Under the pieces are notes generated by a model, which saw only the letters and a list, made by a program, of their open reading frames with translations, was not told where the DNA came from and did no database searches. A program made the translations under genes and the position numbers. Of a stretch of 44,464 nucleotides of DNA, positions 10,922 to 30,994 are shown piece after piece. The stretch is from a virus. The stretch is taken from the UHGV virus genome UHGV-0192852. The stretch is one strand, 5' to 3'. Each line of letters begins with the position of its first letter. Within the stretch, counting starts at the first letter, position 1.

Positions 10922-11529
10922 CCACATTTAAATTATACGGCGTTTTAGGACGTCGATTCGGTAAAGTGCATAAGCTGGACTGCTTCACTCCAGGCGAGGG
11001 TATCACCGGCCTGTGCGTGAAGTTACCCGGCTTACAGGACTTTCTAATGTCGGCCCACCTGGACAATATGATGTTCAAGGTGCGCAAAGGCGACCACACG
11101 ATGACCGGCTATGATGAGCTGGGCGAGTTCCACGGCAACCGCGTAGTTACCATCGCGCCGGTTATGACGGGCGCAAAAAGAGGGTTTGGACAATTGCTGG
11201 CGGGTGTCGCGATCGTAGTGGCGTCGTTCTATACGGGCGGACTTGCTACTGCCGCTTTCGGGGCTTCGGCTGCAACCGCTGCCGCTATCGGGACGGCGAC
11301 GTTTTCGTTCGGGATGTCGATGGCGCTGGGTGGCGTTATGCAATTGCTGTCGCCACAACCGAAAGGATTGCAGACAAGGCAGGACGTGGATAACAAAGCG
11401 TCGTACGCGTTCGGCGGGCCAGTGAATACAACAGCGCAAGGCACGGCGCTTGGTGTATTATGGGGCGAGCGTGAGATCGGCGGCGCTATTATTTCAGCCG
11501 GAATAGTAACCGAGGACTTGAACGAATGA
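10912..11529 (+). CDS. tail assembly protein I
   Basis: 205-aa protein with Gly/Ala-rich hydrophobic C-terminal half, between K and J homologues. Confidence 0.75.
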   Translation: MAMTTFKLYGVLGRRFGKVHKLDCFTPGEGITGLCVKLPGLQDFLMSAHLDNMMFKVRKGDHTMTGYDELGEFHGNRVVTIAPVMTGAKRGFGQLLAGVAIVVASFYTGGLATAAFGASAATAAAIGTATFSFGMSMALGGVMQLLSPQPKGLQTRQDVDNKASYAFGGPVNTTAQGTALGVLWGEREIGGAIISAGIVTEDLNE

Positions 11530-14500
11530 CGATTATCTACGACGTCACAGGGCATAAAGGCGGCGGCGGCAAACAGCACACCCCGCAGGAGACGCCCGAT
11601 AGCCTGCATTCGCTGGCTAAAATCCGCATCTTGCTTGCGCTGGGGGAAGGGGAATTCGAAAGTATTACCAGCGCCAGCGAATTGCGGCAGCGTGTTTACT
11701 TGGATGGAACGCCGATCCAGAACGCTGACCTGTCCGAAAACTTCCCTGGCGCGCGTGTGGAGTTCCGCCCCGGCACACAGCACCAGGATGTGATCCACGG
11801 ATTTTCGGCGGTGGAAAGTGAGCAATCTGTCGGCGTAAAACTGGAAAACGGCACGCCGTGGGTGCGCCAGATTAACGATACCAGTCTGGACGCTGTTCGC
11901 ATTCGCATCGGCATTCCAGCCCTGTACACTAACGAAGATAATGGCGACCTGGTGGGCGGGCGCATCGACTATAAGATAGTTGTGTATACGGATAACGCCG
12001 ACCCGCGTGAGTTCAGATTCGCCGCCGTTGGTAAAACAATGTCGCTATATGAGCGCGACCACCGCATCGAATTACCTCCGAACGTTAACACCGGCTGGCG
12101 CGTGGAGGTGCACCGCATAACGGCAGACTCCACATCGGCGAAAGTGGTTAATGATATCCGGGTGCAGTCCATCACTGAGATTATTGACGCCCGCCTGCGT
12201 TACCCGCTAACCGCGCTGTTGTTTGTGGAGTTCGACGCCAAAGCGTTCCAGAACATCCCGCGCGTGTCCATCAAGTGCAAAGGCCGCAAAGTTCTAATAC
12301 CTAACAACTACGACCCGATTAATCATACCTATTCCGGGGACTGGGACGGCACGTTTAAACGAGCATGGACGGATAACCCTGCGTGGCACTGGTACGACAT
12401 TTGTATTACTGAGCGCTTCGGCCTAGGTCGCCGGATCAAACCACAAATGCTAAACCGATACGCGCTTTACCAGATTGCGCAGCGCTGCGATCAGCTGGTA
12501 AGTGACGGCAACGGCGGACGGGAAATCCGATTTAAGAATGATATGTACATCCAGTCGCAGACCGATGCCTGGACCGTGCTTAAGGATTTAGCCGCTATCT
12601 TTGCCGGAATGACCTGGTGGGGTAATCAGATGTTGAATATCGTCTGCGACCAGCCGGTCGCAGCGGTATCTCACACTATCACCAACGCCTCGGTTATTGA
12701 TGGTCGATTCGACTACGCGTCCGGTAGCCAGAAAACTAGGTATTCCACGTTCGCGGTAGCGTACGGCAACCCGAAGAACCACTATGAAGATGCCATCGCA
12801 ACGGGGCAGCGCGTCGAACTGGTGCGCCGTCATAAGATTAACCGTCTTGATATTACGGCGATCGGCTGTACGCGTGAATCAGACGCGCAACGCCGCGGGC
12901 ACTGGGCGCTAATCTCCAACCAGCTTGACCAGCAAGTTAGCTTTAAAGTTGGCATGGAAGGGCTGTTTTTTATCCCCGGAAGCGTAGTGGCGATCGCGGA
13001 TACTAACATTTCTGGCGGCTTCGAGACACGCGGCGGTCGCCTGTTGTCAGATCCGGGGACACGTACCGTGCTGAACACAGACAGCGAAATCACGTTCCGC
13101 CCTGGTGACAAATTCCTGGTGCGCACCGATAGTGGAAATGTGGAGACTCGCGAGATCTCCAGCGTCAACGGCAACAAGGTTACGCTAAAAACCGCACTGG
13201 ATGCCGACCCGATTCCTGAGCAGCCGTTTTGCGTCGATGGCAACGATATCCAGTTGCAGAAGTTCCGCATCACCGACCTGGAATATGACGACTCTACCAG
13301 CACTTTCTCGGTGCGCGGGATCGAGTACAACGATAGTAAATACGATGCCGTTGATAATGGCGCTCGCCTTGATCCGGGCATCTTTACGCAAGTTCCTGAC
13401 GGCGTAATGAAGGGGCCGGAGTCCGTCACCATTACCCCGTCGCAGATTTCATCACAAGGCCAGCTAATCACCAACGTGGATATTGTTTTCCCGCCGGTGA
13501 AAGATGCCGTTGTATATGAAATCCAGTGGCGACGTACCAGCCTGCAGAATATGGAAATCCAGTGGGGTAACGACTGGGTGAACATCCCCCGCACGGCATC
13601 GAACGGCGCGCACATCCCTAACGTGTTTTCCGGTAACTACCAGGCACGCGTCCGCGCGATCGGTATGGGCGAGATTTCATCACCGTGGGTGTCGTCCGCC
13701 ATCACGCCGATCGAAGGTCGTCTCGGTGGGCTTAACGCACCAATCATCACCAACGCGATTTCAGGCCTCCACCAAATTTTGTGGAAGTGGAACCATAACA
13801 ACGCCGCGACTGATATTTCATACACTGAGCTTGAAGTGCGCAAGACCGGTGAAACGGAATGGAAATTTCTTACCAATGTCCCATACCCGGGGTCAGACTA
13901 TGCGCAAACGTCGCTGGAGTTCGGGGTCTATCAGCAGTTGCGCGCCCGTGTAGCAGATAAAATAGGCAACCTGTCGGATTGGTCGGCCCCGTTTGAAGGG
14001 CAGGTAAGTGCTGAAGTTGACGAGTACATGAAGGGGCTTGATAACGAGTTCTTGACTTCCGAAGACGGCAAACACTTCCAGGAAGCAATAGACACGATCC
14101 CGCAGGGAATTTACGAGGCGATGCTCACCGACGCGCAGCAATTGTTCAACGCCCGCGCCGAGTACAAGGGTATTTATGCGGAAATCTCGGTGGCATATAA
14201 CGTGGCGGCGGACGCCCACAAGGCGGTCGCTCAACTGGAGACGTTGATCGGCACACGCCTTGACGATGCGGAAGCGGCGATCCACACGTTGCAGACGGCG
14301 CAGAGTACACAAGAGCAGGCCTTCGCCCAGTACCAGCAAACTGTTGCCGCTAAGTTCGCGGATCAGGAATCCGCCATCCAGCAGGTACAAACGGCAACGG
14401 CAGACGTAGCTGGCGCGCTGGCGGAGTACAAAACCCAGGTCGCGGCACAGTTCGGTCAGCAGTCCGCCGCTATTGAGCAGAAGATGACGTCTTCGTTTAA

Positions 14501-14945
14501 CCATGCTGGTGGTAATGCCACGTACAGCCTTAAGGCGGGCGTGACATATAACGGGACTTACTATGATGCTGGTATGCAGCTTTCCGTCGTGGCGGAAGGC
14601 GGCGCGGTTAAATCCCGCATCGCGTTCAAGGCGGACCAGTTCTATATCATGCACCCGTCAAATGGGTCGCTTTCATCCGCGTTTATTGTAGACGGAGGGG
14701 CGGTGTACATCGACACGGCACGCATCAAGGACGCGACTATCAACTTCGCGCAGATCACGGACACGCTGCAATCTAATAACTACGACGGCAGCACGCGAGG
14801 CTGGCGCTTAGGGAAAGACGGAACGTTTATCAACCTGGGCACCGGTAACGGAGGCGGGATGAAGCAGACGAATACGCAAATCAGCGTAAGGGACGGGAAC
14901 GGAGTTCTGCGCGTGCAGATTGGCGAAATCACTGGCAGTTGGTAA
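11526..14945 (+). CDS. tail tip / host specificity protein J
   Basis: 1139-aa ORF following I; size and position of lambda gpJ-type central tail fibre. Confidence 0.85.
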   Translation: MTIIYDVTGHKGGGGKQHTPQETPDSLHSLAKIRILLALGEGEFESITSASELRQRVYLDGTPIQNADLSENFPGARVEFRPGTQHQDVIHGFSAVESEQSVGVKLENGTPWVRQINDTSLDAVRIRIGIPALYTNEDNGDLVGGRIDYKIVVYTDNADPREFRFAAVGKTMSLYERDHRIELPPNVNTGWRVEVHRITADSTSAKVVNDIRVQSITEIIDARLRYPLTALLFVEFDAKAFQNIPRVSIKCKGRKVLIPNNYDPINHTYSGDWDGTFKRAWTDNPAWHWYDICITERFGLGRRIKPQMLNRYALYQIAQRCDQLVSDGNGGREIRFKNDMYIQSQTDAWTVLKDLAAIFAGMTWWGNQMLNIVCDQPVAAVSHTITNASVIDGRFDYASGSQKTRYSTFAVAYGNPKNHYEDAIATGQRVELVRRHKINRLDITAIGCTRESDAQRRGHWALISNQLDQQVSFKVGMEGLFFIPGSVVAIADTNISGGFETRGGRLLSDPGTRTVLNTDSEITFRPGDKFLVRTDSGNVETREISSVNGNKVTLKTALDADPIPEQPFCVDGNDIQLQKFRITDLEYDDSTSTFSVRGIEYNDSKYDAVDNGARLDPGIFTQVPDGVMKGPESVTITPSQISSQGQLITNVDIVFPPVKDAVVYEIQWRRTSLQNMEIQWGNDWVNIPRTASNGAHIPNVFSGNYQARVRAIGMGEISSPWVSSAITPIEGRLGGLNAPIITNAISGLHQILWKWNHNNAATDISYTELEVRKTGETEWKFLTNVPYPGSDYAQTSLEFGVYQQLRARVADKIGNLSDWSAPFEGQVSAEVDEYMKGLDNEFLTSEDGKHFQEAIDTIPQGIYEAMLTDAQQLFNARAEYKGIYAEISVAYNVAADAHKAVAQLETLIGTRLDDAEAAIHTLQTAQSTQEQAFAQYQQTVAAKFADQESAIQQVQTATADVAGALAEYKTQVAAQFGQQSAAIEQKMTSSFNHAGGNATYSLKAGVTYNGTYYDAGMQLSVVAEGGAVKSRIAFKADQFYIMHPSNGSLSSAFIVDGGAVYIDTARIKDATINFAQITDTLQSNNYDGSTRGWRLGKDGTFINLGTGNGGGMKQTNTQISVRDGNGVLRVQIGEITGSW

Positions 14946-14950
14946 CATAC

Positions 14951-14972
14951 GGGGCTTTGGCCCCTTTCTTTT
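14951..14972 (+). terminator. rho-independent terminator after J
   Basis: GGGGC-TTTG-GCCCC hairpin followed by TTTCTTTT. Confidence 0.65.
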
Positions 14973-14983
14973 GGAGGTAATGT

Positions 14984-15286
14984 ATGTCTTTCGGAGTCGA
15001 AACATGGGACGCGCAAGGGCGACCGAACAACTACGGGATCAAGCCGGTATCGGTTGCAGGAATCATTAAATTAGCAACTGGGCAAACATCGGGATCGTGG
15101 TCGTTCACTATTCCGTCTGGGATGAAAGTAGGATTCGCGGTTACGCTGGACGAGGGTGGGACAACGGTAGGCAGGGCCATCCGCGCGAGCGGAAATACAA
15201 TAACTGTGTCGGCAGCAAACAGTGTGGGTATCGGCAACTATCCCGCGTCCGCGTGCGAGGTAGTAGTTTTTGTGGAGAAAGCATAA
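14984..15286 (+). CDS. hypothetical protein (possible tail fibre-associated)
   Basis: 100-aa ORF with GGAGG RBS between J and tail fibre genes. Confidence 0.5.
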   Translation: MSFGVETWDAQGRPNNYGIKPVSVAGIIKLATGQTSGSWSFTIPSGMKVGFAVTLDEGGTTVGRAIRASGNTITVSAANSVGIGNYPASACEVVVFVEKA

Positions 15287-15288
15287 AA

Positions 15289-15960
15289 ATGGCAAACTTT
15301 GGCGCATTAATTGATAACAACAATGGCAACCCATTCGTCACGCCAAACTCAACGCCGTTCGTGCTGTACGCAAAGGCATCTGCAAATTCAGTTGACGCGG
15401 GCGCGGACTATAAAACCGCGAACGGGAGCGTGGATATCCCCGCGAACTACCCGGCGATGGTGTTCATGCGGTCAAACAACCGTTGCGTCCTGGCAGCGTC
15501 ACGATCTGGAAACAGGATAGTATTCAGCGGAAGCATCCAGGGGCGGAACAACCCGCATTTCACGGTAACAGCGTACATATTCGCAAGATTCCCTCAACCG
15601 CTGCCACGATGGGGCTTTGCAATTTGGGACGCCAGCGGGACTTGCATACTGACCAACGAGAGCAAAGTTCTCACGGATTTAGTCACAGTCGGCAGCTTCG
15701 GTAATAACGGCGGGATCAACATAGACCAGACGCTGCCGGGTAAGTACGCCGTATCGCCGATGTTAATGGGTGCTACTCTTATTCAGATATTTGTGCAAGG
15801 CCAGCCGCAGATTATTCAGATCTCTGCGGGGGCCGGCGCTTACGACAACGGGAGCGGCACGCGTATTAACGCCGTGGCGACACAGGCGGGGTCGGGTAAC
15901 GTTGCTGGGTATCAAAACACGGGGGTCGCTCTGACGGCAATTAACGTGGATGGGATATGA
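15289..15960 (+). CDS. hypothetical protein (possible tail fibre-associated)
   Basis: ATG 15289 in frame within track ORF 15097..15960, immediately after previous stop; Gly/Asn/Ala-rich. Confidence 0.5.
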   Translation: MANFGALIDNNNGNPFVTPNSTPFVLYAKASANSVDAGADYKTANGSVDIPANYPAMVFMRSNNRCVLAASRSGNRIVFSGSIQGRNNPHFTVTAYIFARFPQPLPRWGFAIWDASGTCILTNESKVLTDLVTVGSFGNNGGINIDQTLPGKYAVSPMLMGATLIQIFVQGQPQIIQISAGAGAYDNGSGTRINAVATQAGSGNVAGYQNTGVALTAINVDGI

Positions 15961-15978
15961 AAAAGCCACTTTCGTGGC

Positions 15979-16197
15979 TTATTTGCAGGTCGTCCTTTTG
16001 AAGTGGTCAACCGATACATACTGGAAGTTGAACGGGTATCCCGCCCTTAGCATTTTATGACCGCCGAAGTCGGCTACCCCAAAAACAGGGACAGAATACT
16101 CCATGCCGCTATTCACATATGTCGCGTCGCAGACCTTAGACGGCATAGTGGCACACCCTGATAGAAGGACCGCACAAATCATAATTAAAGTTTTCAT
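15979..16197 (-). CDS. small lipoprotein, candidate superinfection-exclusion protein (Cor/Llp-like)
   Basis: MKTLIMICAVLLSGC signal peptide with lipobox; CAGGAGAT RBS; divergent from and adjacent to tail fibre gene. Confidence 0.55.
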   Translation of the reverse strand: MKTLIMICAVLLSGCATMPSKVCDATYVNSGMEYSVPVFGVADFGGHKMLRAGYPFNFQYVSVDHFKRTTCK

Positions 16198-16277
16198 GGT
16201 ATCATCTCCTGTATTGGGTTGTGTTTTAGTATTACACCGCTCAATCAAGAATGCAACCAATTTAAGAGGATTTAGCT

Positions 16278-18659
16278 ATGGCAGCGGGTACTCTATCCGT
16301 AACGAATAACAGCACCGCGGTAGTCGGGACCGGCACAACGTTTACCGCGTTAAAGGCTGGCGACTTCTTATCGCTGGTAGTAGGGCAAGTCCCTTACACT
16401 GTGGCGATCGCGTCCATCGAGAGCGACACCGCGCTTACGCTGGTGCTGCCGTTCGACGGCCCCACGGCAACCGACCTCGCGTGGGACGGCGTTAAACGCG
16501 ATACCATGTCGCTGGCAACGATGGGCGTAACAGTACAGGCCCAGAAAGCGTTGCGCTTGATGATTGCAGATGAAAACAACTGGCGTGCAATCTTCGGCGA
16601 CGCTGAAGAAATCACAGTGACGTTACCTAACGGGCAGGTTATGCAGGGCATGTCATGGGGCTATCTGTCGCAGTTGATGAATCAGATCGATCCTGTAGAG
16701 ATGCGCAACCTGCAACAACAAGCCGCTGCGTCGGAGGCTGCCGCACAGGGATTTCGTAATGAAGCCGAAGGCATCAAGAATACGACAGCTGGCATTCGCG
16801 ATGCCACCGACCTGATCAAGACTGAAACACAGGCTATCCACGACGCAACCAATACCATCAAGGGCCAGACGAACCAGATCAAGACTGAAACACAGGCCAT
16901 CAAGGACCAGACGAACCAGATCAAGACTGACACTGGCGTTATGAGGGACGAGGCTAACACCGCGAAGAGTGACGCGCAAGCCGCCAGCACTGCCGCGCAG
17001 GGATTTCGCGATCAGGCCCAAGAATGGGCGCAAAGCATCAATGCGGATAACCTGCTAACCAAATCAGGCAACCTGGCAGGGCTGACCGACAAAACGCAGG
17101 CATGGCTTAATGTTCGCCCAGACGGGGCCACGCCATTGGCGGGCGACCCTGTAGGTGACTACGACGCTGCGACAAAGCGCTGGGTGCAGAACCTTATCAA
17201 CTCCGGCACGATCGGCCCAACAATGAATGGCGTGATGAACTACGGCGTCGGCGATTTCCACCTTCGCGATAGCCGCGCATACATTCAGCCGTATGAAGTA
17301 GTGTCAGACGGGCAATTGCTTAATCGCGCTGACTGGCCCGAACTATGGGCTTATGCTCAAATGCTTTCACCTATTGAAGATGCAGACTGGCTTGCGGACC
17401 CCGCAAATCGCGGTAAATATTCTCTGGGTGACGGTACAACTACGTTCCGCGTGCCAGACCGTAACGGTGTGCAATCTGGATCTATTGCTGGGCTATATGG
17501 AAGAGGCGACGGGGTAGGAAATGGAACGGCAAATTCTTTGATAAACGGGGAAGTGTTCGATTCGGGTGCTCCCAACATCATTGGTGATATTGGCGCTGTT
17601 CTGTCTTACGGAGCCAGTGGCGCATTTGCCTATGTGCGTCAAGCAGCTGACGTTTCCGGTGTGCCAGTCGGCACAGGTCTTGGGACACAGATAGTTGCGT
17701 TTGATGCCGCAAAAAGCAGTGAAGTATACGGAAGGTATGATAACGAAATCATGGGCCGTAACTTCGTCGGCGTGTGGGTGATTCGTGCATCCGGCGGCTT
17801 CGTGGCAGCAAACACGTCGTGGTCAGTAATCAACGGCGACGCCACAAAACCGCCAGCGGGCACTACGGCAGACGGCGGTCAGCTAAAATCAGAGTATAAA
17901 GTAAACGGCACGGTAGAAGGTGAGTTGTTCTGGCGTATCCGAGCGGCAATCGGGGCCGAATATTACGCACGTTTGAACGTTTATAATGCCACCGCCAACC
18001 GCACCGCCGTTTATGACTTTGATGATCTAGGCACTTTCTCGGCGAAAAACCTGCGTTCTTTGGGTCGAATTGACTCCTATGGTGGTATTACTCTCCAGAA
18101 ACAGGGATTCCCTAGCGTATACTTTAACTCGAGTAGGTATGCCTCGCCGAATACGCAGGTTGGCGCGATAACATTGATTCAGGTGACTGGGGCGGACGGA
18201 GCAGTATCTAGCGTAAACCTTATCAGGAGACGCGACGATGGTACCCAAACTGGCCAGATCGTTGTTACATTCCCAACCAGCAGCGGAATTCTCGCGCTGC
18301 AAGGTACGTCGGGCCGCGAGTATAAGAAAGATATTGCCGATGCAGACGCAAGCGAGGCTATGGACCGCATTAGCCGCCAGCGTCTTGTTAACTTCGTGTA
18401 CAAGGATGACGAGAAGGGCCGCCGGCGCTTCGGTATTATCGCCGAAGAAGCGGAGTTGATCGCGCCGCAATACGTCAAGCACATCGAGGTTCCCGTCGAG
18501 GATATCTTAGACGAAGACGGCAACAAAATCGGCGAGAAAACACGGGATAGACCGTCCGTCGACGTTAACCCGATCGTAATGGACTTAATGGGGTGTGTTC
18601 AATATCTCAATAAGCAGGTTGAGGAGTTGAAGGCCGAGATCGCGGCGCTGAAGAAATAG
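16278..18659 (+). CDS. tail fibre protein with C-terminal intramolecular chaperone (peptidase S74-like) domain
   Basis: 793-aa ORF; coiled repeats (IKTETQAI...); C-terminal SGREYKKDIADADA...RRFGIIAEEAELIAPQYV resembles self-cleaving chaperone domains of tail fibres/endosialidases. Confidence 0.75.
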   Translation: MAAGTLSVTNNSTAVVGTGTTFTALKAGDFLSLVVGQVPYTVAIASIESDTALTLVLPFDGPTATDLAWDGVKRDTMSLATMGVTVQAQKALRLMIADENNWRAIFGDAEEITVTLPNGQVMQGMSWGYLSQLMNQIDPVEMRNLQQQAAASEAAAQGFRNEAEGIKNTTAGIRDATDLIKTETQAIHDATNTIKGQTNQIKTETQAIKDQTNQIKTDTGVMRDEANTAKSDAQAASTAAQGFRDQAQEWAQSINADNLLTKSGNLAGLTDKTQAWLNVRPDGATPLAGDPVGDYDAATKRWVQNLINSGTIGPTMNGVMNYGVGDFHLRDSRAYIQPYEVVSDGQLLNRADWPELWAYAQMLSPIEDADWLADPANRGKYSLGDGTTTFRVPDRNGVQSGSIAGLYGRGDGVGNGTANSLINGEVFDSGAPNIIGDIGAVLSYGASGAFAYVRQAADVSGVPVGTGLGTQIVAFDAAKSSEVYGRYDNEIMGRNFVGVWVIRASGGFVAANTSWSVINGDATKPPAGTTADGGQLKSEYKVNGTVEGELFWRIRAAIGAEYYARLNVYNATANRTAVYDFDDLGTFSAKNLRSLGRIDSYGGITLQKQGFPSVYFNSSRYASPNTQVGAITLIQVTGADGAVSSVNLIRRRDDGTQTGQIVVTFPTSSGILALQGTSGREYKKDIADADASEAMDRISRQRLVNFVYKDDEKGRRRFGIIAEEAELIAPQYVKHIEVPVEDILDEDGNKIGEKTRDRPSVDVNPIVMDLMGCVQYLNKQVEELKAEIAALKK
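16812..16933 (+). repeat. intragenic tandem DNA repeats within tail fibre gene
   Basis: ATCAAGACTGAAACACAGGC at 16815 and 16877; CAGACGAACCAGATCAAGACTGA at 16866 and 16908. Confidence 0.7.
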
Positions 18660-30189: not shown

Positions 30190-30592
30190 TTAATCTTCCA
30201 GTTCGAAATAAGTTTCGACGATTTCTTTAAGATCTTTGTGGAAGTCTTCGACGTCGTCATCTTCCAGCTTGGCGATTGATTTGATCTCGAACGATTCCAG
30301 CAGGTCGTCGAATTCGTCGTTCGCGTCATCATCATCACCGCCTGCAATAATAGCGGCATACTGCTTGATTTCGTCGCGCATTTCTGCCAGCGGATCAGCT
30401 TCTTTCTTACCTTTGCCTTTCGCTTTCTTAGTCTTCGCCGGAGCTTCTTCTTCGACTACTTCTTTTTTGGCCTTAGACGGCTTCTTGTCTTCCTGCTTAC
30501 CCACGGCAGCGCCAACGGTTTCATAATGCTTTGCAATGGTTTCCAGTGCTACTACGCCGCGAGTGATCAGGTTTACGATTTGTTCAAACATG
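30190..30592 (-). CDS. hypothetical Lys-rich/acidic protein
   Basis: ATG 30592 (MFEQIVNL...) with GGAGAT RBS; first gene after the leftward early promoter; acidic C-terminus. Confidence 0.5.
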
Positions 30593-30787
30593 GTATATCT
30601 CCGATTGGTTAAGTTTAGGTGTCGGCAGTTAACTTCGTCGGTGGCCTTAACATATTGCCCGGTTGCGCGTTCTCCCGTTCGGGTAGTGGACCGGGTTATA
30701 TAATCACGGTTGGGAATCCTGACACTTCGATCCGGCCCCTGCGTTGCCCCTCTCCAGTTTGCGTCCTGCATCCTGTCGACGGGGTGA

Positions 30788-30862: not shown

Positions 30863-30994
30863 TAACCAATAAGAGACAATGAGACGGAAAGTATTATTAC
30901 ACGCGTGCGCGCCCGTTTCAATATTCCAGAGGAGTTGACACCCTGCGGTTTTAGGTGTAGTTTCATTGGTCATTAACCAACTGGGGGCAGAACA

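Follow-up and report, generated by a model that had tools for sequence, protein, structure and literature searches.

The question raised by this locus is what a short gene on the minus strand does in the middle of the tail genes of a small siphovirus. The DNA analysed, called the window below, is the whole 44,464-nucleotide stretch of the virus genome UHGV-0192852. It is very nearly a whole Dhillonvirus genome, and 93-94% of the length of its first 25 kb aligns with the phages ZCEC10, ZCEC11 and YD-2008.s at about 91-92% identity. Scanning all of it for Rfam families and tRNAs gave no matches. The gene, cor, occupies positions 15979 to 16197 (minus strand, stop codon included), and the original prediction had taken its product, from position and a lipobox alone, for a superinfection-exclusion lipoprotein of the Cor/Llp type. 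The analysis described here supports that reading and narrows it: the product is very probably a superinfection-exclusion lipoprotein of the Cor family, made by a virulent Dhillonvirus that depends on FhuA.

The open reading frame starts with an ATG and has 72 codons, and its product is MKTLIMICAVLLSGCATMPSKVCDATYVNSGMEYSVPVFGVADFGGHKMLRAGYPFNFQYVSVDHFKRTTCK. The first 14 codons and the codon of the lipobox Cys15 (16153..16197, minus strand, read directly from the sequence) specify the leader, MKTLIMICAVLLSG followed by the Cys, in which the one basic residue of the N-terminus, Lys2, precedes a hydrophobic stretch and the lipobox L-S-G-C15; this arrangement agrees with the PROSITE PS51257 rule. 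The predicted 72-residue protein with a lipobox signal peptide, on the strand opposite to the tail genes, was thereby confirmed, and Cys15 is invariant in an alignment of 77 homologs. Lipoprotein sorting is governed by the residue at +2 (the Asp+2 retention rule), and since this residue is Ala in Cor, sorting to the outer membrane is predicted, with a predicted mature form of 58 amino acids (Cys15-Lys72). A Shine-Dalgarno sequence, AGGAGA, lies at 16210-16205 on the minus strand, 7 nt upstream of the ATG, and the relatives carry either AGGAGA or AGGGGA as the ribosome-binding site. A longer candidate of 93 amino acids, starting from a TTG at 16260, was rejected, i.e., its signal peptide would be buried, it is without a ribosome-binding site, and the relatives are all annotated from, and keep, the ATG at 16197.

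Membership of the Cor family was established by several homology searches. The NCBIfam equivalog NF047972, “phage exclusion lipoprotein Cor”, matched with 58.9 bits against a cut-off of 31, aligning residues 2-71 with profile positions 2-76 of 78, and PHROG 1119, “Cor superinfection exclusion protein”, matched with an E value of 7.2e-28 (residues 1-72 on positions 1-75 of 78). In Pfam, neither Cor nor the 100- and 223-residue proteins encoded beside it found a family, with sub-threshold noise as the only return. By tblastn, Cor was found in 247 phage records. The Dhillonvirus orthologs, many of which carry the annotation “Cor” or “super-infection exclusion protein” already, are 82-93% identical to it (90% for Bas15, 87.5% for Bas17 and 86% for JLBYU37). 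Identity to the Cor of T1 is 51%, with about 45-56% among the T1-like phages by tblastn, and identity to that of phi80 is 42-43%, with 31-42% by tblastn for phi80, HK022-like phages, ES18 and other temperate phages. A profile search gave 97 database homologs, many of them named “phage exclusion lipoprotein Cor” at the source, where a single-sequence search with a word index gave 7. In the 77-sequence alignment Cys23, A52, G53, P55 and F56 are as invariant as the lipobox Cys, and Cys71 and Y54 are nearly so; the lipobox Cys, C23, the RAGYPF motif and C71 are common to the Cor proteins of the window, JLBYU37, T1 and phi80. These homology tests identify the 72-residue protein as a clear Cor ortholog. 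Cor is a familiar phage lipoprotein that closes FhuA, the ferrichrome transporter of the outer membrane, so that an infected cell offers later phages no point of attachment. The gene is thus an ordinary and already known one, annotated in many related phages, and contributes little that is new, since curated databases and recent papers already cover the family, where its genes lie and how it is linked to FhuA.

The neighbourhood of cor is equally characteristic. In window order, a J-like tail tip gene (11526-14945, plus strand) is followed by a gene for 100 amino acids (14984..15286, plus strand; PHROG 557, E 1e-32), homologous to gp22 of N15 and of phi80 and encoding a putative accessory protein of the FhuA-type module, then by a gene for 223 amino acids (15289..15960, plus strand; PHROG 425, E 6e-67), homologous to gp23 of N15 and of phi80, and then by cor. 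The 223-residue protein is 47% identical to its T1 homolog, 48% to that of phi80 and 44-76% across the T1-like phages. The cor gene converges on the 223-residue gene, which ends at 15960, and diverges from a gene starting at 16278 for a 793-residue tail fibre protein with a C-terminal Peptidase_S74 chaperone domain; these two gene ends confirm the placement, claimed earlier, between the tail tip genes and the tail fibre gene. Between 212 and 18659 the plus strand is filled by open reading frames of at least 90 amino acids, and the minus-strand frames in that region, cor apart, overlap them and look spurious. In PaulFeyerabend, too, the cor homolog is the sole annotated minus-strand gene between J and the fibre gene. 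The gene thus looks like a lone inverted unit within a plus-strand structural block.

The same order of J, 100-residue gene, 223-residue gene and cor is found in T1, phi80 and JLBYU37. The 1.5 kb around cor matched 131 phage records, the best being PaulFeyerabend (Bas15) with 87% identity. A survey of 83 cor-bearing loci showed that a 223-residue-type gene adjoins cor in 59 of them, always accompanied by the 100-residue gene. The cassette is present with cor inverted in 29 loci (Dhillonvirus, T1-like phages and five contigs of 52-57 kb), and in 30 loci, of the phi80/lambdoid type, cor comes after the cassette in the same orientation; the other 24 have cor without the cassette within 3 kb.

A promoter, TTGCAT-N16-TAATAC, had been proposed for cor. 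The letters are present (TTGCAT at 16256-16251, 16 nt, TAATAC at 16234-16229), but with three of six consensus matches per hexamer they are not the best parse of the site, and a consensus promoter scanner made no call there; it made two weak calls inside the coding region (16205-16178 on the minus strand and 16158-16185 on the plus strand). The promoter is better read as TTGCAT-N17-TGnAATACT, with a TG-extended -10 element, i.e., as a promoter-like site at 16228..16256 on the minus strand with the -35 TTGCAT at 16256-16251, a 17-nt spacer, the TG at 16236-16235 and the -10 AATACT at 16233-16228, which the phage presumably uses. This TG-extended parse is a weak consensus match as well, 7 of 12 positions plus the TG. 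TTGCA, TG and AATACT do not vary across about 20 Dhillonvirus loci, in contrast to the spacer, and the first -10 base of the TAATAC parse is either T or C. The composite motif occurs in 9 copies in the window, counting both strands, against 2.6 +/- 1.6 in shuffles, an enrichment that is supportive and not decisive, the pattern having been defined after the site was seen; one copy falls exactly within the 80-bp gap between cor and the tail fibre gene. Upstream of the T1 cor a promoter-like TTGCAA-N17-TACAAT was read by eye. In the Dhillonviruses of the LptD and BtuB types this promoter stands ahead of the receptor-binding gene or genes as well, so that early-only expression, as in T5 llp, cannot be assumed.

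At the other end of the gene, a terminator scan and folding revealed a hairpin that resembles an intrinsic terminator, AAGCCAC GAAA GTGGCTT followed by a T-run (15953..15980, minus strand). The hairpin proper, at 15980-15963, shares nucleotides with the cor stop codon and is placed where cor and the 223-residue gene converge. It folds on the minus strand with -12.6 kcal/mol (z -3.1) and more weakly on the plus strand (z -1.95), and the terminator call and the T-run are on the minus strand only.

Which receptor the lipoprotein would block can be approached through the relatives. In the BASEL S5 table PaulFeyerabend (Bas15), GeorgBuechner (Bas16) and KarlBarth (Bas17) are FhuA-dependent, and Bas14 and Bas18 are LptD-dependent; JLBYU37 is FhuA-dependent as well (PMC10373560). 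A three-gene “cor cassette” has been described in T1, HK022, N15, ES18, phi80 and ten BASEL Drexlerviridae/Dhillonvirus phages, all of them FhuA users (PMC13164509), and the protein of the 223-residue type has been proposed to be the FhuA-binding receptor-binding protein (PMC12309495, PMC13164509, bioRxiv 10.64898/2026.04.02.716166). With 44-76% identity, the 223-residue protein of the window exceeds the 30% threshold for that family (bioRxiv 10.64898/2026.04.02.716166). Because the cor cassette, the FhuA dependence of the nearest relatives and the Cor identities all point the same way, FhuA is a well-supported predicted target of Cor. The predictive value of the locus lies here, since cor together with the two genes upstream would mark the phage as FhuA-dependent.

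From these elements a mechanism can be proposed. The host RNA polymerase would transcribe cor as a short unit of its own, from the strand opposite to the tail genes, starting at the TG-extended sigma-70 promoter in the 80-bp gap and stopping at the hairpin over the stop codon. The 72-residue precursor would be exported, probably lipidated, and cleaved before Cys15. [quoted passage not shown] Incoming FhuA-dependent phages would then no longer adsorb irreversibly, and progeny would not be wasted on FhuA in debris. The open reading frame, ribosome-binding site, lipobox, Cys pair, hairpin and synteny in this scheme are read from the sequence; promoter use, lipidation, the disulfide, FhuA as the target and the allosteric mechanism are what we infer. 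If the scheme holds, infected cells are predicted to resist T1, T5, phi80 and other FhuA-dependent phages, which is relevant to the design of phage cocktails. The Cor of mEp167, in work by Arguijo-Hernandez from 2018, reportedly needs other outer-membrane proteins, and a one-to-one model in which Cor jams the FhuA plug may therefore be incomplete. The late steps of the scheme derive from the structure of Llp with FhuA (PMC9586334) and from the genetics of temperate-phage Cor cited in bioRxiv 10.64898/2026.03.26.714494.

The benefit of a FhuA blockade could also lie elsewhere. In “lytic conversion” the same blockade would mainly keep fresh progeny virions from inactivation by the FhuA of lysed-cell debris and vesicles. 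The phage looks strictly lytic, as a Dhillonvirus, and such a role has been discussed for T5 Llp and T1 Cor (PMC13164509). The orientation of the gene is in keeping with it, cor being an inverted stand-alone unit in the loci of virulent Dhillonvirus and Drexlerviridae phages and part of the tail operon in temperate phi80-like loci. Lytic conversion is, however, compatible with exclusion, the molecular act being identical, and as the main benefit of the gene it is regarded as possible but rather unlikely.

That the lipoprotein blocks a receptor other than FhuA, e.g., BtuB or another TonB-dependent transporter, is improbable. Lipoproteins resembling Cor and Llp do accompany BtuB-specific phages (PMC13164509), and PTXU06, a Dhillonvirus of the BtuB type, encodes in this position a lipoprotein that has the leader of Cor. 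The mature domain of the Cor studied here, however, is unrelated to the mature domains of PTXU06 and Oekolampad and is 82-93% identical to that of Dhillonviruses found by experiment to depend on FhuA, and the adjacent 223-residue protein falls, as given above, with the FhuA-type homologs of T1-like phages. More improbable still is a decaying or silent remnant that has lost its function. The promoter is indeed only a moderate consensus match, but cor shows a dN/dS of 0.02-0.10 at a dS of 0.7-1.2 when compared with eight Dhillonvirus orthologs, which indicates that it is a real gene under strong purifying selection, and cor, like every relative examined, has kept its start codon, ribosome-binding site, lipobox, Cys pair and promoter elements intact; on these two grounds the pseudogene reading was rejected. 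Finally, a lysis or other housekeeping lipoprotein that lies near the tail genes by chance is the least probable of these readings: small size and a lipobox are also typical of outer-membrane spanin subunits, themselves small lipoproteins, but the Cor match is full-length, no spanin family is among the Pfam, PHROG and NCBIfam matches, the neighbours are tail-tip and tail-fibre genes with no gene for an inner-membrane spanin partner among them, the model described below shows a compact beta-barrel containing a Cys pair where a spanin would be extended and proline-rich, and the synteny with J/gp22/gp23 homologs extends across three phage groups, so that the spanin (Rz1-like) reading was rejected as well.

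T5 Llp provides the mechanistic model for Cor. Llp binds the FhuA plug from the periplasm, the loops EL7 and EL8 fold inward, and the protein carries a Cys11-Cys58 disulfide (PMC9586334). Cor proteins were stated to be likely to act in the same manner (PMC9586334), and how Cor itself works at the molecular level is described as still to be elucidated (bioRxiv 10.64898/2026.03.26.714494). The Cor of KanT1 reportedly binds the FhuA plug from the periplasmic side. Llp and Cor have been placed in one family, with about 20% identity that includes the disulfide (PMC9586334; bioRxiv 10.64898/2026.03.26.714494; PMC13164509).

An AlphaFold2 model built from the 77-sequence alignment (mean pLDDT 83.7, above 90 for residues 21-70) is a small beta structure of five strands. 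Comparison with the PDB using Foldseek gave the best TM-scores to 8a60_B, which is T5 Llp with FhuA (TMq 0.53, TMt 0.61; rmsd 3.1 A over 59 columns, 24% identity), at an E value of 0.044 that is not significant and with Tudor-like barrels ranking beside it. In BFVD the top match was a Dhillonvirus ortholog (E 1.6e-11), followed by lipoproteins of T5-like phages (E 8e-4 and 1.5e-3). Llp is also the top PDB sequence match for the single Cor sequence, where phmmer found no significant similarity (E 0.19), and for the Cor profile (E 0.017, profile positions 1-45); what aligns is for the most part the signal peptide together with the first strand. The original prediction had proposed comparison with both families, and its Cor half held up where its Llp half did not at the level of sequence. 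Llp is thus at best a distant relative and a mechanistic model, and Cor does not belong to the Llp subfamily.

The comparison with phages that use other receptors led to a separate set of observations. When the window was aligned by blastn with the LptD-specific Oekolampad, the similarity ended at 14821, about codon 1099 of the 1139 codons of J, and resumed at 16150, which is cor codon 16, directly after the lipobox Cys. The left-hand end of the differing stretch comprises the last ~41 J codons (14822..14945, plus strand). The last ~40 residues of J occur in two types, one that accompanies FhuA or BtuB modules and is also present in T1 and phi80, and another that goes with the LptD modules. 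The gene in the cor slot of Oekolampad encodes MKTLIMICAVLLSGC and then a mature domain unrelated to Cor; it is the counterpart of Rtp45, a lipoprotein shown to block LptD (PMC12685063). In PTXU06, of the BtuB type, this leader is joined to yet another mature domain, distinct from both. Across the FhuA, LptD and BtuB types, DNA identity over the promoter, 5′ UTR and leader is 88-95%, and the 141-nt promoter-leader stretch is found in 156 phage records, against about 76 for Cor at 80% identity or more.

Because of these breaks in similarity, the shared leader and the unrelated mature domains, the receptor module appears to be exchanged between the J body and the lipobox of the exclusion lipoprotein. 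The cor gene might accordingly be composed of a chassis that is constant throughout the genus (promoter, 5′ UTR, signal peptide and lipobox; 16150-16277) and an exchangeable mature domain, with the chassis and the J body (to 14821) serving as homology arms for the joint swapping of the receptor-binding protein and its matching lipoprotein among Dhillonviruses of the FhuA, LptD and BtuB types, a proposal for which and against which we would lean about equally. If so, the promoter and signal peptide would be a fixed junction for matched receptor-binding and receptor-blocking modules, and this could help to retarget small siphoviruses. The variable receptor locus itself was already known (PMC8594841). 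A description of the lipobox junction was found neither in the BASEL papers, the LptDE paper and the 2026 receptor-prediction preprint nor by a targeted literature search, which is no proof of novelty, and the precise position of the junction is the only element here that is mildly new.

The locus can be compared with four known systems. T5 Llp is likewise a small outer-membrane lipoprotein of a virulent siphovirus, its gene lies beside the receptor-binding gene, its small beta-barrel may be similar to the one modelled for Cor, its receptor is FhuA (predicted here), and its Cys pair is similarly spaced, mature Cys9-Cys57 in Cor versus Cys11-Cys58 in Llp. It differs in that the two share only about 24% identity, at the edge of what sequence similarity can detect, and T5 uses a different receptor-binding protein, pb5.

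The Cor proteins of T1, phi80, N15, HK022 and mEp167 share full-length homology with that of the window, together with the lipobox, the Cys pair, the RAGYPF motif, the J-like tip, gp22-like and gp23-like neighbours and the predicted receptor FhuA. In the temperate phi80-like and lambdoid loci cor is codirectional with the tail genes, whereas the gene of the window, like that of T1 and other virulent small siphoviruses, runs against them and has a promoter-like site and a terminator to itself. The phi80 Cor is also 5-6 residues longer, with a “QEP” insert after the lipobox that is absent here. The Dhillonvirus proteins (UAE_MI-01, SECphi18, YD-2008.s, SSL-2009a, JLBYU37 and PaulFeyerabend bas15_0027) are orthologs, 82-93% identical, whose genes sit where cor does with respect to J and the lateral tail fibre and share its promoter, ribosome-binding site and terminator; they show point differences only, and the dS of 0.7-1.2 is high although the genomes are about 91% identical.

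The LptD-directed lipoprotein of the Rtp45 type (Rtp; Oekolampad bas18_0026) occupies exactly the same slot in LptD-type Dhillonviruses, and the promoter, 5′ UTR and signal peptide MKTLIMICAVLLSGC of bas18_0026 are identical or nearly so to those of the window. The logic would also be the same, a periplasmic lipoprotein that disables the phage’s own receptor. In contrast to Cor, however, its mature domain is unrelated and its target is LptD, and in the LptD-type Dhillonviruses the receptor-binding gene lies downstream of the lipoprotein gene, on the same strand.

The stretch in which the FhuA-, LptD- and BtuB-type Dhillonviruses differ from one another corresponds to positions 14822-16149 of the window, with junctions at 14821 and 16150, and in the gene for the exclusion lipoprotein its right end comes precisely after the codon for the lipobox Cys. 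The promoter, the 5′ UTR and the signal peptide MKTLIMICAVLLSGC of this gene are common to phages of all three receptor types, and the mature lipoprotein domains are unrelated between types: the 16 sequences compared, from the window and 15 loci, sort into three classes. The loci named for the junction comparison were L085, L086, L088, L089, L091, L094, L095 and L097. In TheodorHerzl, the promoter and the residues MKTLI are kept, and the hydrophobic region differs.

Within the variable stretch, the genes for the 100-aa and 223-aa proteins (14984-15286 and 15289-15960, both on the plus strand) occur as two divergent alleles among the FhuA-type Dhillonviruses; the comparison covered the window (14984-15960) and the loci L001, L004-L009 and L028. 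The window carries the YD-2008.s/SSL-2009a type, with identities of 90-91% for the 100-aa and 95-96% for the 223-aa protein, versus only 69% and 53%, respectively, to the JLBYU37 allele; despite these two alleles, Cor identity is still 86-94% in the same comparison. The 223-aa homolog of L028, a T1-like contig, is 76% identical to that of the window and therefore nearer to it than the other Dhillonvirus allele, a sequence relationship which suggests exchange between phage families. The existing names of both proteins look misleading, since inspection by eye showed neither a signal peptide nor a hydrophobic membrane segment in either sequence, and since recent papers have proposed the two proteins as receptor-binding components of the virion.

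Where the 223-aa gene and cor converge, a hairpin (within 15961-15985) separates them, with a clear T-run in the cor direction only; plus-strand transcripts that extend into the tail fibre gene could do so only by reading past this hairpin and crossing cor in antisense. A weak plus-strand promoter-like site was called by the scanner within cor, at 16158-16185. Sigma-70-like TG-extended promoter motifs (TTG at −35, a spacer of 16-18 nt, TGn, and a −10 element matching at four or more of six positions), a pattern set after the promoter-like site of cor had been seen, were enriched over both strands of the window, with 9 observed versus 2.6 ± 1.6 in shuffled sequences. The pattern scan placed them at 178, 4982, 14920, 27047, 34055 and 38692 on the plus strand, and at 30921, 29040 and 16256 on the minus strand. 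The motif at 14920 is within the 3′ end of J, directly upstream of the 100-aa gene, and that at 30921 precedes the minus-strand ORF 30190-30771, with which the group of large minus-strand ORFs reaching down to ~18687 begins.

Coliphage-type cor loci (42-86% identity) were also present in records labelled with non-enterobacterial hosts, i.e., Campylobacter phage A144 (MG065648), Acinetobacter phage NJ01 (OQ221563) and Pseudomonas phage Motto (ON843697); these hosts may have been assigned in error, or coliphage contamination may account for the sequences. Five viral contigs with larger genomes (L010-L014, 52-57 kb) encode Cor homologs at 62-68% identity, with cor inverted as in the window and adjoining J and the gp22-like and gp23-like genes; their Cor N-terminus differs, the match beginning at residue 5 or 12.

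The window (1-44464) appears to be all, or almost all, of a Dhillonvirus genome, in which no tRNA genes or Rfam families were found. Over the first 25 kb, its identity to the nearest phages in GenBank (ZCEC10/11, YD-2008.s and NHEP3) is ~91-92%; as the usual species line is 95% identity, the phage possibly represents an undescribed species.
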